Source: Candidatus Thorarchaeota archaeon (GTDB lineage: Archaea; Asgardarchaeota; Thorarchaeia; Thorarchaeales; Thorarchaeaceae). Taken from it: a DNA stretch of 10,273 nucleotides. Location: NCBI GenBank assembly GCA_048882045.1, contig JBHLRZ010000063.1:1-10273 (forward strand), in the 5' to 3' direction. Position 1 is the stretch's first letter. The number at the start of each line of letters is the position of its first letter. Made by a program: the position numbers and the translations under genes. This document shows positions 1 through 7,074 of this stretch, in pieces. Below the pieces are notes generated by a model. That model ran no database searches. It worked only from the letters and a program-made list of their open reading frames with translations, and had not been told where the DNA came from.

Positions 1-430
1 ACACAGTATTACCTGTTGTCCACTCAATGTGAACATGATTATCTCTAATCATGCCAAGGAGTTGTTGTAGTAACTTAATTCCTACATAATCGTAGGTTCC
101 CTACAATTTGAATCAGTGTACCTCCATCCTCTGCAGTCCACGCGTCAGACTCTCCATGACACATTTCACCGAGTCATCGACGTTGACGGTCCTCCACCGG
201 GAATGGCACCAATCTCATGGCCTGGTCCCGATGGACCTTTGTTCAGTGTTCAAGACGTCTGAACTCCGGACCTAACGCTAGCACATCACGTTTTCAGTGA
301 GCGCTCCGCCAGCCTAATTGGTTGGCGATTTAAAGCTTGCTATGCGTCGAGGGTGAAAACCGTCACCAGTGCCACCAGAACAGCCTCACGACGTTTACGT
401 CGCATAAGACCTTCTCTTCGACGAGAGCAC
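1..430 (-). ncRNA. Putative large structured non-coding RNA (at least 430 nt, probably truncated by the window edge; possibly OLE-like)
   Basis: The ORF track shows no ORF of 60 aa or more in 1-486. Minus-strand helices found by eye: 414-427, 382-411 (GUCUUA..CGACG-UAAA-CGUCG-UGAGGC), 352-367, 338-348/274-283 (closing stem), 307-327, 286-300, 241-264, 224-237 (GGUCC-AUCG-GGACC), 268-272/188-192, 145-178, 81-96, 65-70/101-106, 32-55 (GGCAUGAUUA-GAGA-UAAUCAUGUU, GNRA loop) and 3-16. Several stems contain G-U pairs on the minus strand that would be A-C mismatches on the plus strand, which fixes the polarity. A BRE-TATA element lies just upstream. Confidence 0.75.
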
Positions 431-450
431 ATCTTTCCCATCAGAATTTG

Positions 451-465
451 CGTATAAAGCTTTTG
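451..465 (-). promoter_or_regulatory. Archaeal BRE + TATA box for the putative ncRNA
   Basis: The minus strand reads CAAAAGC-TTTATACG: an A-rich BRE directly followed by TTTATA (458-453). A pyrimidine/purine step (T/G) at 431/430 lies about 23-28 nt downstream, right where the first hairpin begins. Confidence 0.7.
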
Positions 466-486
466 ACAGAGGCTGTATTTTGAGCT

Positions 487-1194
487 CTATTTCAGAGATA
501 GTGCCTTGTTCTGAGCCTCAATAAGATCTGAGATTCCCTTGGTAGCAAGATCAAGCATCTCATTGAGTGCAGCTCGACCAAACCTTGCACCTTCTGCAGT
601 ACCCTGTACCTCTACGAACTGATTGTCCAACATTACAATATTCATATCAACATCTGCAGTCGCATCCTCTACATAACAGAGGTCTAGAAGGGCATCTCCG
701 TCAATCAGACCCACGCTAACAGCGGCAACATTTCCGTTTAACGGACGTTCAGATATCAAATCCATGTCGACCATGTATTGGAGTGCGTCACAAAGAGCTA
801 TATAGGCGCCGGTGATTGATGCAGTCCTTGTTCCTCCGTCAGCTTGGATGACATCACAGTCTATGCGGATTGTGTTATCGCCTAATCTGTCCATGTCGAC
901 AGCAGCTCTTAGAGAACGACCTATCAACCGTTGAATCTCCTGAGCTCGACCACTCATCTTGTATCGGTTCATTCGATCATCAGTTGAACGGGGTAGCATA
1001 CCATACTCAGCAGTCACCCACCCCTGGCCTCTTCCATTCAGCCAGCCGGGGACTACCTCTTCCACTGTAGCAGTACATATGACCTTGGTTTCACCCGTTG
1101 ACACTAGGACGGATCCTTCGGGGTGTTTGAGAAAGTTTCTGACAAATTCGACAGGACGAAGTTCGTCGTTCGCTCTACCATCAGCTCTTGGCAT
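487..1194 (-). CDS. rph: Ribonuclease PH (bacterial-type phosphorolytic 3'-5' exoribonuclease / tRNA nucleotidyltransferase)
   Basis: 235 aa. Contains R-x-DGR-x3-[36 protein letters not shown], the RNase PH signature [30 protein letters not shown] and EVQGTAE. Confidence 0.96.
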
Positions 1195-1260
1195 AGTGAT
1201 GAACCCATATTTTGACTAAGAAATCGACTATTAATCACTGTCGGGGAATGTAGGAGATAG

Positions 1261-1267
1261 TTTTATT
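1261..1267 (+). promoter_or_regulatory. Probable TATA box for the nucleotidyltransferase gene (leaderless or short leader)
   Basis: TTTTATT after purine-rich GAGATAG, about 24-30 nt upstream of the TTG at 1291. Confidence 0.4.
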
Positions 1268-1290
1268 GAGGTTCCTACACCTGATGAAGC

Positions 1291-2361
1291 TTGGAGTCTT
1301 TGGTAGAGAACACGAGGAGAGAGCAAAAATTGAAAGACCTTCACAAAAGATTTGACGATGCCCTTCGTGACACTGTGAATGAGTGGAGGGACCATAAAGA
1401 GGTGAAGGGGATTTTTGCATATGGTTCTTATGTGAGAGGTACAGTTACCGCAAACTCAGACCTTGACATCGGCATCATCTGGGGTGCAGATGATGCTCCA
1501 GTAAGGCTCATGTCAACACACAAGGAAGTCCCTGTCGACATGGTCTTCATGACTGTGAGTGATGTTGAGGGTGTTTTTAATGGGACTACTAAAGAAGTGA
1601 CTAAAATATCAGAGGTCATCAACCGACTGAGAAACTCTAAGGTGGTCCACGACACAGATGGACTCGTTAAGAGTTGGCAGGAAAAAACTGTGAATTACAC
1701 TTGGTCGGAGGAGGCTATCACACAGGTCAAAAATATAGCAATGGAGCACTTGAAGAGAGCAAGAAAGTTTGCGCAAGAGGATGAGGGACCCAGTGCAATT
1801 TTCGAACTGAGAGAGGGTCTCTTCAATATCGGTCGAGTCATCATCATGATAAACAACATTTTCCAAATACTCAAACCTGCTGAGGTGTTGACCGAAGTCA
1901 GAATGCTCGATCCAATTGCGTATTCTTTGTTTCTAAGAGCATACAAACTCAAAGGCATGTATGAACCAAAGCTCCTCAAGGTTCTAGAAGACATGCGACA
2001 GTGGTTGGAAATAGCAGAAGCCAAAATTAATACAGTCACAACAGATGAACAAGCCATCCTTGCCACTGAGCTGCTTTCACAAGCTCAGAGAGAGTATCAA
2101 GGATCACTACGTCTTACTTACAATGGCGACTACGAACTTGCAGTTCTGGAGATGCGGCAAGCAGCGTGTTCTTTGGGACGCGCGCTCATCACTCTCAAGG
2201 AGTTTTCAAGTTTCATTGATGGCGCTTTTATGGATCAGCTTGGTGAGAGCGAACCAGTGTTTTACGAAGAGATACTCATGGAACACGGAGCTTATGATAT
2301 CCTTCCAAAGGAAATTACACGAATTATCAGCGAAACAGAGTTCATCGCTCAACGATTCTAG
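1291..2361 (+). CDS. Pol-beta superfamily nucleotidyltransferase (MNT/KNTase-like) with two C-terminal HEPN-like helical repeats
   Basis: Has the hG[GS]x9-13DhDh motif (YGSYVRGTVTANSDLDI) and a third acidic residue in VPVDMVF. Two similar helical segments follow: AMEHLKRARKFAQEDEGPSAIFELREG and AQREYQGSLRLTYNGDYELAVLEMRQA. TTG start. Confidence 0.85.
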   Translation: MESLVENTRREQKLKDLHKRFDDALRDTVNEWRDHKEVKGIFAYGSYVRGTVTANSDLDIGIIWGADDAPVRLMSTHKEVPVDMVFMTVSDVEGVFNGTTKEVTKISEVINRLRNSKVVHDTDGLVKSWQEKTVNYTWSEEAITQVKNIAMEHLKRARKFAQEDEGPSAIFELREGLFNIGRVIIMINNIFQILKPAEVLTEVRMLDPIAYSLFLRAYKLKGMYEPKLLKVLEDMRQWLEIAEAKINTVTTDEQAILATELLSQAQREYQGSLRLTYNGDYELAVLEMRQAACSLGRALITLKEFSSFIDGAFMDQLGESEPVFYEEILMEHGAYDILPKEITRIISETEFIAQRF

Positions 2362-2408
2362 GTTAGATTGATTAGGATAATTTGAAAATCCCATATTCAG
2401 TGGTTACG

Positions 2409-2972
2409 ATGACTGCTGTTCAGATATTGAAGCTCTTGAGTGTTACTTTGACAAGAGAAAAACAGGACATTCTAGAGAAGGAGCTTGGGAAGTATGGTAA
2501 AGCCACTAATTGGACTATCAAGCAGATTCTGAAACAGCATCTCACAGCACCAGTAAAGACGATGGATGTTCTTAGAGATTCATTCACAGAACAATTCGAC
2601 AAACGTGATCAGTACTTTCAGGATGTTGTGAAAACCGCAAGAGTTGAGATATCGAACCACCGGAAGTTGGCGAAAACTGTTCGGAGTATGAGGGACAAGA
2701 CACCCTTCTTTAAACCGGGCAGGATGATTCTCTCACAACCCCTTCTCAGACTAAGCGAGAAGGCTGTGACGCTCTCAATTCCAGATGGTACTAAATTGGC
2801 CATACCTTTTGACAAAAGGAGTAGAAATCGGTTGGTTGAGAAGATTCAGTCAATATTGAGAGGAGAGAAATCTGGTGAAATCAATCGAAAATATGGTCGA
2901 ATACGTATCACTTGGAACAAAGAGGGATTCGCAGATATAGATATTCGAGCAATTATCTCAGACAACCCATGA
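2409..2972 (+). CDS. Basic protein resembling the N-terminal WED/REC region of TnpB/Cas12f, lacking RuvC
   Basis: The ORF track gives 2382-2972 (TTG). I prefer the ATG at 2409 because TTTGAA at 2381-2386 sits at TATA distance from it. The pattern LKLLSVTLTREKQDILEKELGKYGKATNWTI ... YFQDVVKTA ... PFFK ... ILSQPLLRL..AVTL...GTKLAIP ... YGRIRITWNKEGFADIDI follows the usual order of TnpB N-terminal elements. The protein ends before any G[VI]D[LV]G RuvC-I motif. The ORF is probably real; the fold call is from pattern recognition only. Confidence 0.6.
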   Translation: MTAVQILKLLSVTLTREKQDILEKELGKYGKATNWTIKQILKQHLTAPVKTMDVLRDSFTEQFDKRDQYFQDVVKTARVEISNHRKLAKTVRSMRDKTPFFKPGRMILSQPLLRLSEKAVTLSIPDGTKLAIPFDKRSRNRLVEKIQSILRGEKSGEINRKYGRIRITWNKEGFADIDIRAIISDNP

Positions 2973-3839
2973 TACGATTGATCCAGAAGGATCACCTGTA
3001 TACACGACATCTTTCGTGTTAGACCAAGTCAGTGATGTGATTCCTGTCACAAGTTTTCCTGATGCGACTTCTTTACCATCCTCAACAGACCAGATTCGTA
3101 GTGTTCGGTCCCAACTTCCAGATGCAAGAAACATTCCAGAAGGATCTACAGCCATCGAACTAACTATGTCTGAGTGTCCAGACATCTTCAATCTGTCATC
3201 GCTGTTTTCGATATTGATTCTCAGAATGGTACCACCATTTTGTCCGAGAAACACGGATGACCCATCTGGAGTAGAGGTCATTGACCTAAGGCGAGGTCCC
3301 TTCTTTCGTAATGTCTTGATTAGTTCATAGTTAGATAAATCCCAGAGTTTACATTCTCCATCATACGAAGAGGTCAACATCCTCTTCTCCCCCTCCAGCA
3401 AGATAATTCCAGATATGTCTGATTTGTGTGCCTGTAGATTCTTTGTACATTTCAGGCTTTTGAGGGAGAAAAGCTTGATTTCACCGTCACGAGCTCCTGA
3501 AGCGCCTTTTCCCGAAGAGGGGGAGGTTGTAAGAGCTCGGACCTCGGAAGCATGCTTCAGTACAATTGGATCTTCTCTGGATTTTGTGTTCCAGAGTCTT
3601 GTTGTCTTGTCTCGACTGCAAGAAACCACTGATGTTGAACTACTTGTGAAGGCAACAGCAGCTACTGCTCCATCGTGGCCTTTTAGCCCTCGTTTTGTTT
3701 TTCCAGTCTTGGAATCTATCAGTATGATTGAGCCATCGGAAGACCCACTAACAAGTAGCCGTCCTTTAGGAGCTATTGCGATGCTTGTCAGTGAGGGAGA
3801 TACTCCACCAGTTGGTCGAAAAAGGATGGTCTTTTCCAA
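2958..3839 (-). CDS. WD40-repeat beta-propeller protein (about 7 blades)
   Basis: Repeated GH...S.S.D..h.hW units: LKGHDGAV..SCSRDKTTRLWN, QAHKSDI..TSSYDGECKLWD, MSGHSDIV..SGSWDRTLRIWS. TTG start with GGTGAT Shine-Dalgarno at 3850-3845. Confidence 0.95.
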   Translation of the reverse strand: MEKTILFRPTGGVSPSLTSIAIAPKGRLLVSGSSDGSIILIDSKTGKTKRGLKGHDGAVAAVAFTSSSTSVVSCSRDKTTRLWNTKSREDPIVLKHASEVRALTTSPSSGKGASGARDGEIKLFSLKSLKCTKNLQAHKSDISGIILLEGEKRMLTSSYDGECKLWDLSNYELIKTLRKKGPRLRSMTSTPDGSSVFLGQNGGTILRINIENSDDRLKMSGHSDIVSSMAVDPSGMFLASGSWDRTLRIWSVEDGKEVASGKLVTGITSLTWSNTKDVVYTGDPSGSIVSWVV

Positions 3840-3844
3840 TCTAT

Positions 3845-3894
3845 ATCACCATGAAACAAGCATCAAATGATGGTCAAGGAAAATTCAGTTAAAA
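3845..3894 (-). promoter_or_regulatory. TATA box and Shine-Dalgarno of the WD40 gene
   Basis: Minus-strand TTTTAA at 3894-3889 and GGTGAT at 3850-3845, 5 nt before the TTG start. Confidence 0.5.
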
Positions 3895-3906
3895 GTGTGT
3901 AACATA

Positions 3907-4905
3907 TCATCTGCGTCTGAACATGAAAATGATCACAGGGACCACAATGATTGCTCCTGCAGCAACCCATAGAAGAGTAGGATTGTCAACTGGAAATGAT
4001 GTACCACTGTTGGCATATTCAACGACAAAGACCTCTAACACTTCACCCACAGTCTGTAGACTTTCAGCACTACACTTTTCAGGGGTGTCCTCAACGGTGT
4101 GCCAATACCAAGGAAATGGGTAGTGAATCAGATCCACAGATGGTATTCCAACATTTAGAAAAGGCCGATGATCATCAGTGATTGAAGCTCCACCGGTTTC
4201 AAGAAAGGTATCATTGTGACCTAGTTGATGGGCGATGCTCCAGATTGTGTTCTGAAGGGATGTTGTGGAACTACTCTCACGTGGCAAACGCAAGTTTTCG
4301 TCTCCCACCATATCAGCTAGAATCATTGCTTGAATGGAGCTAATCCGTACCGAACTGAGTTGTGATACATAATAGGTGGCACCCTGTATCCAGTCCCAAC
4401 CGTCAATCTGCCCAGAGTCCTCAGCGTCAAAGAGAACCAGTTCTACAGTCGATCGTACAGTTTCAGGTAATGAACGAGCAAGTTCCATGAGAACAGCAAC
4501 ACCACTTGCACCATCATTGGCTCCGAGCACCGGTTTTGTTCGGTTCTCAATGTATGGGTCGGATGTCGCTCGGGGCCGCGTGTCGTAGTGAGCTCCGAGG
4601 ATTATTGGGGAAGTTTGCGAAGATTCCCATGTTGCGATGATGTTGACACATTCAACCTCCATGTAAGTGAAATCTTGCAACGTCACGTTCCATCCGAAAG
4701 ATTCGATTGTTTCGGCAATGTATGCTCTACTACGGGTGAGATTTCCTGAACCTGGAGGACGAGGGCCAAAGTCACACTGGTCAATTAGATACTGATAGGC
4801 ATTGGTACCATTGAAGCTGGGGACATGAGTAATCTGATGAGGGCCAATTGAACTCACTGAAACAACAAGCAGCAGTATAATAGAAGCAGTCCAGAACTCT
4901 CTCAT
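3907..4905 (-). CDS. M28-family Zn metalloenzyme, glutaminyl-cyclase-like, with N-terminal signal peptide and C-terminal membrane anchor
   Basis: Motifs FGPRPPGS, GAHYDTR, GANDGASGVAVLMELA, LFDAED, DMVGD, DDHRPF and WHTVEDT. Hydrophobic N-terminus (WTASIILLLVVSV) and C-terminal LLWVAAGAIIVVPVIIFMF-RRR. Confidence 0.9.
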   Translation of the reverse strand: MREFWTASIILLLVVSVSSIGPHQITHVPSFNGTNAYQYLIDQCDFGPRPPGSGNLTRSRAYIAETIESFGWNVTLQDFTYMEVECVNIIATWESSQTSPIILGAHYDTRPRATSDPYIENRTKPVLGANDGASGVAVLMELARSLPETVRSTVELVLFDAEDSGQIDGWDWIQGATYYVSQLSSVRISSIQAMILADMVGDENLRLPRESSSTTSLQNTIWSIAHQLGHNDTFLETGGASITDDHRPFLNVGIPSVDLIHYPFPWYWHTVEDTPEKCSAESLQTVGEVLEVFVVEYANSGTSFPVDNPTLLWVAAGAIIVVPVIIFMFRRR

Positions 4906-6243: not shown

Positions 6244-7074
6244 TTAACTTTCCGCAATAATGAACTCGAAAGTGTCGTCTGTATCGGCTTCATCAACTCC
6301 CAGTTTCTGACGAATTAGACTCTCGAATGCGGGGTTTATCTCGTATCCAATCGAGTTCCGTCCCAGTTCGCGAGCTACTTTTAGTGTGGTCCCACTTCCA
6401 GCAAAGGGATCAAGAACAGTATCACCTACAAACGAATATAGACGAATGCATCTACGTGGAAGCTCTTCTGGAAAAGGTGCAGGGTGTTTCTCTTGTTTTG
6501 CAGATGCAGGTTGGAAATCCCATATCGAATTTTGTACCCAGTTGGTGAACTCATCGTGTGTAATCTTAGATGCGTCCTTGATTTCTGGATCTACTGGCTT
6601 TCTCTTTCCCTTCTTTGCAAAGACGATTATCCATTCATAGGGGTAGGATGATATCAAGTTGGGAGGATAAGGATAAGATCCCCAAGAACTGAACCGAACA
6701 ACCTTCCTCTTGTCCCAAATGAATAGAGAATGGAAATACATGTTTCCAAGAGAAACCATAAAATCTTCCAAATCCGTCAGAACTGATTTTGTGACGCGAC
6801 GGTTGAATTTAGTGTTCTTGCCAGTGAGTAGAATAGGCATGATGTTGATGATCAATTTTCCATCTGGCACCAGTTTTTTCACACATTCATTAAACACACT
6901 GTTTATTGAGGCGAGATAGTCTTCATAGGATTCAGACGTCTGGCTGATTCCTTTATCGTCCCCATAGTCTTTGAGTTTCCAATATGGAGGAGAAGTCACT
7001 ATGAGGTGAACAGAGGAGTCATCTATCATGTCCATGTTTGCACTGTCACTAATCACAACTTTGTGATGGGTCAT
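6244..7074 (-). CDS. Beta-class amino-DNA methyltransferase (SPPY, probably N4-cytosine)
   Basis: Motif IV TSPPY near the N-terminus, HPAPFPEELPRR, and motif I DPFAGSGTT near the C-terminus, giving beta order. Starts 1 nt after the stop of the upstream MTase. Confidence 0.92.
   Translation of the reverse strand: MTHHKVVISDSANMDMIDDSSVHLIVTSPPYWKLKDYGDDKGISQTSESYEDYLASINSVFNECVKKLVPDGKLIINIMPILLTGKNTKFNRRVTKSVLTDLEDFMVSLGNMYFHSLFIWDKRKVVRFSSWGSYPYPPNLISSYPYEWIIVFAKKGKRKPVDPEIKDASKITHDEFTNWVQNSIWDFQPASAKQEKHPAPFPEELPRRCIRLYSFVGDTVLDPFAGSGTTLKVARELGRNSIGYEINPAFESLIRQKLGVDEADTDDTFEFIIAES

Follow-up and report, generated by a model that had tools for sequence, protein, structure and literature searches.

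Long folded RNAs that are transcribed ahead of an rRNA and removed in the course of its maturation are known from the eukaryotic 5' external transcribed spacer (5' ETS) and the bacterial rrn leader, both of which lie before the small-subunit rRNA; such spacers are credited with organising early folding or assembly, and the U3 snoRNP and the Nus factors are their known partners. Tandem rRNA promoters are known from haloarchaea. In other archaea, among them Haloferax volcanii and Sulfolobus acidocaldarius, the flanks of 23S pair across the rRNA, with the 5' partner supplied by the 16S-23S spacer, and carry ~25 nt outside each mature end a bulge-helix-bulge motif (BHB) composed of a 3-nt bulge, a 4-bp helix and another 3-nt bulge; the motif is cut by the splicing endonuclease, circular pre-rRNAs are formed and the leftover spacers are ligated (PMC7038931). 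Circular rRNA transcripts have been reported for Asgard archaea as well (PMC12918454). Unlinked rRNA genes have been reported for Asgard archaea, Thorarchaeota included, in a paper whose accessible part also points to a degeneration of the processing stem, apparently in those organisms whose rRNA genes are not linked (PMC8997704).

The window described here is a stretch of 10,273 nt of DNA from a member of the Thorarchaeota (Asgard archaea; G000:C63:1-10273), position 1 of which is the end of contig C63. The minus strand of its first 465 nt was taken in the original prediction for an independently transcribed, ornate ncRNA of an unrecognised class. It is far more probably (at about 0.88) the promoter of a 23S rRNA gene unlinked from 16S, together with the 5' external transcribed spacer (~430 nt) of that gene. 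The position of the gene itself is given by the relatives: in all eight that have enough flank, the counterpart of window position 1 is followed after ~17 nt, on the same strand, by position 1 of the Rfam model LSU_rRNA_archaea. No assembled 23S was found in the own genome; the 3' end of its 23S gene (LSU model positions 2822-2987), together with the trailer, lies at the very end of contig C1 on the minus strand, so that C63 with its start and C1 with its end enclose a 23S gene missing from the assembly. Contig C63 was broken by the assembler at the rRNA, hence the leader stands alone inside the window. BLAST showed the region of window 1-480 to be single-copy in the own 3.6-Mb assembly and without overlap to other contig ends of this genome; homologues of the same region on the minus strand are present in 19 of 24 same-genus genomes at 72-90% identity, many of them near contig ends. 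The absence of a sizeable open reading frame was confirmed by an ORF scan, which found none above 55 aa in window 1-486, and the nearest gene upstream of the leader encodes an RNase PH-domain protein. The features of the locus are collected in Table 1.

Table 1. Coordinates of the features of the 23S leader, its upstream neighbour and the repeat cores of related loci (window positions unless another contig is named)
Feature	Contig	Positions	Strand	Details
RNase PH-domain protein gene	C63 (window)	487-1194	-	Pfam RNase_PH and RNase_PH_C; stop ~28 nt before the TATA box; upstream neighbour
Promoter P1, BRE and TATA	C63 (window)	451-465	-	TATA 458-453; predicted start ~433-428
5' domain of the leader	C63 (window)	135-433	-	299 nt, ~94 base pairs; two three-way junctions and hairpins
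First three-way junction	C63 (window)	338-429	-	closing helix 429-418/350-338; hairpin 417-377 with loop UAAA; hairpin 376-352 with GNRA loop GUGA at 366-363
Second promoter-like box (putative P2)	C63 (window)	326-340	-	nearly identical to P1; single-stranded in the RNA model
Two hairpins	C63 (window)	280-327	-	327-307 and 305-280; helices 8-10 covary
Second three-way junction	C63 (window)	188-272	-	closing helix 272-268/192-188; hairpin 264-241; long hairpin 235-193
3' hairpin domain within the 5' domain	C63 (window)	136-187	-	helices 15-19; inner stems swapped for compensating sequences in the second genus clade
Outermost processing-stem helix, 5' strand	C63 (window)	117-134	-	pairs with trailer nt 51-68, just before the T-run; cofolds in 14 genomes
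Insert of variable sequence within the processing stem, with local hairpins	C63 (window)	75-116	-	length and sequence differ among species; many indels (alignment columns 395-455)
Two middle helices, 5' strands	C63 (window)	52-74	-	64-52 and 74-66; pair with trailer nt 17-42
Local hairpin with GAGA tetraloop	C63 (window)	32-55	-	8 Watson-Crick and 2 G-U pairs
BHB, 5' half	C63 (window)	1-20	-	outer helix 20-15, central 4-bp helix 14-11, 3-nt bulge 10-8, inner helix 7-1; invariant in the genus
Repeat cores, L029	G013:C34	678, 1541, 2600
Repeat cores, L236	G002:C33	2573, 4183, 5494		degenerate copies at 6502 and 7404
Repeat cores, L237	G001:C32	27, 1338, 3984	-

The separation of the two rRNA genes is seen in the relatives: on one contig of G017 a distance of 69 kb lies between 16S and 23S, and in G045 the distance is 59 kb. 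An Rfam scan found no SSU gene within the 10-kb window. With its own promoter and a distance of tens of kb to 16S (69 kb in G017), this 23S gene resembles the unlinked rRNA genes of Asgard archaea (PMC8997704) and of Thermoplasma. Five complete 23S genes with both flanks were recovered from relatives, and no tRNA remnant was detected in the leader or in the 23S flanks of these five loci. Since the 16S gene of G017 (L239, G017:C205) has a promoter box of the P1/P2 type ~336 nt upstream and a leader of ~300 nt, both of the unlinked rRNA genes of this lineage can be said to have long leaders.

The BRE-TATA promoter was correctly recognised in the original prediction. The P1 box is kept in all 20 genus sequences and at the same place in ~45 of 56 family leaders, its core is also found before the 16S gene of G017 and before several tRNA genes, the SRP RNA gene and the RNase P RNA gene of the own genome, and the start of the transcript is predicted near 430. 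A further box, P2, follows 115-130 nt after P1, with which it shares 9 of 10 core positions. The 17-mer that comprises P2 is invariant in 20 of 20 genus members, all 56 family leaders examined carry its core, it closely resembles the boxes of the own tRNA-Met and tRNA-Gly genes as well as the 16S promoter box, and it is left unpaired in the RNA model. At somewhat under even odds, P2 may be a tandem promoter, from which part of the 23S transcripts would start near 305 and would lack the first junction, the 17-mer being kept as DNA and not as RNA; a tandem promoter would explain why it is frozen amid covarying helices. This is opposed by the hairpin 327-307, which is placed between P2 and its predicted start and nevertheless covaries (helix 8), so transcripts from P1 are under selection. 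The arrangement is like that of the haloarchaeal tandem rRNA promoters in that two near-identical boxes ~125 nt apart are found upstream of an rRNA gene, but P2 is a putative promoter and lies inside a covarying RNA domain.

The leader is a strongly folded RNA, and the choice of the minus strand as the RNA strand proved right. The minus strand of window 1-440 folds at -150.3 kcal/mol as compared with -132.1 +/- 5.8 kcal/mol in dinucleotide shuffles (z = -3.1; none of 100 shuffles as good), the plus strand reaches z = -2.2, and some G-U pairs exist on the minus strand only, for example 411-406/387-382. The structure exceeds chance: shuffled sequences are beaten as stated, and the structure is conserved and covaries in 19 same-genus genomes and at 58 loci of the whole family.

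The covariation was evaluated on two alignments. In a structure-blind alignment of 20 genus sequences (A2), the minimum-energy fold of the own sequence gives 86.4% paired cells as compared with 35-47% when the partners are slid, and 14 pairs with changes on both sides as compared with 5-9 in the slid controls, which is a weaker support than that obtained from the family-wide alignment; whole hairpins are exchanged in A2 for different self-complementary sequences. A covariance model of positions 433-135 was derived from A2 (R1; 299 positions, 94 pairs) and matches end to end at 58 of 61 loci with scores of 33-343 bits. In the resulting alignment of 58 loci (A3), 87.1% of the cells are paired (35-47% in slid controls), 76 of the 94 pairs have changed on both sides (27-38 when slid) and the number of such cells is 478 (80-137 when slid), values that were reached by none of 500 shuffles; A3 was fitted to the structure of the R1 model, by which the pair counts are inflated, and the margin over the controls is still large. 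The covariance-model alignment replaced an RNAalifold analysis of a structure-blind MAFFT alignment of 55 family leaders, which with its 824 columns was too gappy and produced spurious long-range pairs. RNAduplex applied to the whole flanks (560 nt against 400 nt) was over-greedy and uninformative.

Support is distributed over the whole 299-nt domain. In the first three-way junction the loop of hairpin 376-352 is of the GNRA type in all genus members (GUGA, GCGA, GCAA or GUAA), and the stem beneath it covaries (helices 1-7). Helices 11-14 show 93-98% pairing, with changes on both sides in all pairs of helices 11-12 and in 7 of 10 pairs of helix 13. A C/D-box or K-loop (L7Ae) element was considered at 299-282 and rejected, the site being a plain Watson-Crick hairpin without a C-box-like sequence in 9 of 20 genus members.

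The domain is confined to one family. All 58 loci, from 16 genera, belong to Thorarchaeaceae (f1) and are syntenic, upstream of 23S; the domain occurs once per genome and in 23 of 26 sampled family members, and a profile of the whole leader finds matches upstream of 23S in every other genus of the family. The domain was not detected upstream of the 23S gene of the sister family (L222), and a search of 124 further Asgard genomes from 26 families was likewise negative. A literature search returned no paper describing this leader domain of the Thorarchaeaceae 23S gene. The leader at L186 (G045:C2, ~1722-2531; genus g15) is longer, ~820 nt as compared with 440-600 nt elsewhere, and has its 5' domain separated from the processing stem by an insertion of ~300 nt. 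The 299-nt domain of this single Asgard family, with its covariation, is a candidate for RNA family libraries, where it would prevent mistaken gene calls.

The remaining third of the leader has its partner on the other side of the rRNA. The trailer is found 3.1 kb downstream of the leader strand and measures 85 nt to its T-run; in the own genome, cofolding of its first ~70 nt with positions 134-1 of the leader gives a single long helix with interruptions, and the same architecture is obtained at -75 to -87 kcal/mol in 14 genomes for which both flanks are known. Compensatory changes connect the two strands: between clades, a trailer C-to-U change offsets a leader G-to-A change of the outermost helix, and in G010 a leader A-to-G change in the middle part of the stem (52-74) is offset by a trailer U-to-C change. 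The local hairpin with a GAGA tetraloop that had been noticed in the original prediction is present within the 5' strand, and one of its pairs (alignment positions 478-483 with 496-501) switches from A-U to G-C in 9 sequences of the genus alignment; the tetraloop itself is not kept in the second clade.

The stem ends next to the rRNA in a BHB, the 3' half of which, with a 3-nt bulge of its own, is present in every trailer. The canonical geometry of 7 bp, bulge, 4 bp, bulge and 6 bp was obtained in 12 of 14 cofolds, whereas the minimum-energy cofolds of the own genome and of G014 swap the outer 6-bp helix for an alternative pairing, with the canonical partners still present. The BHB sequences are invariant, so no covariation can come from them. 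Directly after the outermost helix every trailer ends in a T-run, the expected archaeal terminator. The stem is like that of H. volcanii and S. acidocaldarius in the pairing of the 23S flanks across the rRNA, and in the composition of its BHB and the distance of the motif from the mature ends; it differs in its extent (134 nt on the leader side, ~70 nt on the trailer side), in an insert that varies among species, and in taking its 5' partner from a dedicated leader and not from a 16S-23S spacer (PMC7038931). The accessible part of PMC8997704 points to stem degeneration among organisms with unlinked rRNA genes, which makes the intact stem found here, with a BHB invariant across the genus, informative; a leader domain is not described in that part of the paper.

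A precise model of the Thorarchaeota 23S transcription unit, consisting of promoter, leader, intact BHB stem, trailer and terminator, can be drawn from these elements. Transcription would start ~25 nt after the TATA box, as predicted from the box, and would proceed through the leader, 23S and the 85-nt trailer to the T-run. The last 134 nt of the leader would then pair with the trailer into the long interrupted stem, the canonical BHB of which lies ~25 nt outside either mature end. If other archaea are a guide, both bulges would be cut by the tRNA-splicing endonuclease, and a ligase would circularise the pre-23S and join the leader to the trailer, an outcome like the one expected in H. volcanii and S. 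acidocaldarius (PMC7038931).

The 299-nt domain most likely acts in cis during transcription. It would hold or present the 5' strand of the stem and so keep it in order up to the synthesis of the trailer 3 kb further on; alternatively, early assembly or processing factors may be recruited by it. The domain is comparable to the eukaryotic 5' ETS and the bacterial rrn leader as a long folded RNA transcribed ahead of an rRNA, except that it precedes 23S instead of the small-subunit rRNA. It may have a role in large-subunit biogenesis.

A role after processing is compatible with the identity of the region as a spacer. In this case BHB cleavage and ligation would give a stable leader-trailer RNA of ~490 nt, for which 23S would be intron-like and which would act in trans. 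Ligation products of rRNA spacer leaders and trailers are cited as reported in other archaea in PMC7038931, the extended stem would cap the 3' end after ligation, and the elaboration of the domain and the strength of its covariation go far beyond the needs of a plain stem. However, no target was found for such an RNA: the longest antisense run between leader and 23S is 14 nt as compared with 12-16 nt in shuffles, so no guide-like role is seen, and sense similarity between leader and 23S was not detected either. Furthermore, spacer fragments are usually degraded, and a role in trans is regarded as unlikely. It is to the same degree doubtful that the Thorarchaeaceae 23S would be a giant "intron", with the 299-nt domain and the ligated stem persisting as a functional RNA of ~490 nt, or that the domain would be a large-subunit assembly platform like the eukaryotic 5' ETS. 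If it were so, the ~490-nt RNA could for instance couple large-subunit production to other processes in a lineage with unlinked rRNA genes.

A free-standing ncRNA gene of a new class, independently transcribed and terminated beside 23S, is much less credible still, and on this point the original prediction has to be given up. Three observations speak for it, namely a conserved promoter of its own, a strong and conserved structure, and the lack of an Rfam match (no family at the gathering score; at E values up to 10 the best match has 15.5 bits, E = 3.4). The independence of the gene does not stand, as 23S begins ~17 nt past the edge of the window and the 3' third of the supposed gene pairs with the 23S trailer, with compensatory changes; an rRNA spacer is what the original prediction itself had named as the contrary outcome. 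Neither is there a conserved T-run in 433-1, between the domain and 23S, the first conserved one standing after the 23S trailer. The only promoter-like boxes conserved upstream of 23S, P1 and P2, are located inside or before the same RNA, and the domain occurs only directly upstream of 23S, once per genome. Least probable by far is that the region is a piece of some ribozyme-type RNA, mobile or known (group II intron, OLE-like RNA, RNase P RNA, SRP RNA), a reading for which the position at a contig end and a weak Rfam match to group II domain 5 at 33-52 (15 bits, E = 3.2) could be quoted, but the region reaches no Rfam family at threshold, is single-copy in the genome and syntenic across 16 genera, the RNase P RNA and the SRP RNA are located elsewhere in the own genome, and the Rfam library, in which OLE is included, gives no match.

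Judged by its conservation, the RNA of window 1-465 appears to be a real element, the transcription of which is predicted, and not a new class of gene. What looked like a new ornate archaeal ncRNA is, on the 23S spacer reading, a pre-rRNA leader cut by a contig break, and a false lead is removed with it. The kind is already known, an rRNA leader, and the remaining novelty is modest: the family-specific 299-nt domain and the possible internal promoter.

Some further observations were made in these genomes. The own SRP RNA (L235, G000:C11:46113-46423) is a full-length match to the archaeal SRP model, and because its score of 80.5 bits is below the Rfam gathering score of 96.5, standard annotation would miss it. 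In the window, two plus-strand reading frames at 2382-2972 and 1291-2361 comprise a nucleotidyltransferase-domain gene followed by a 196-aa ORF, the pair being divergent from the RNase PH gene; Pfam gave no match for the 196-aa ORF, and as far as seen the pair is unrelated to the 23S leader.

In some Thorarchaeota arrays of direct repeats are found downstream of 23S (cores in Table 1). The repeat, of ~95-185 nt, is made up of the final 40-60 nt of 23S together with the 3' BHB half, the trailer and the T-run; copies are spaced by 0.9-2.6 kb with one or two genes per interval, among them a HepT/MNT toxin-antitoxin pair, YdjM, LRR proteins, an esterase, UbiA and genes for unknown proteins. One repeat copy of G013 shares 95% identity with the trailer of G014, a different species. 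The arrays contained no copy of the 5' half of the BHB and the intervals no integrase, and the tyrosine recombinase family PF00589 had no match in five genomes. The arrays look like the result of repeated site-specific insertion of small cassettes at the 3' end of 23S, a misassembly being a possible alternative. The own genome has a single copy of the unit of 23S end and trailer.

Two further observations concern long rRNA genes of relatives. The 23S gene of L023 (G010:C21; LSU match 992-4853) spans 3862 nt as compared with ~3080-3110 nt in four relatives, and the insertion of ~800 nt is possibly an rRNA intron. The 16S match of L242 (G014:C73:13812-16104) extends over 2293 nt for a model of 1478 positions, which suggests an insertion or intron of ~800 nt in that gene.
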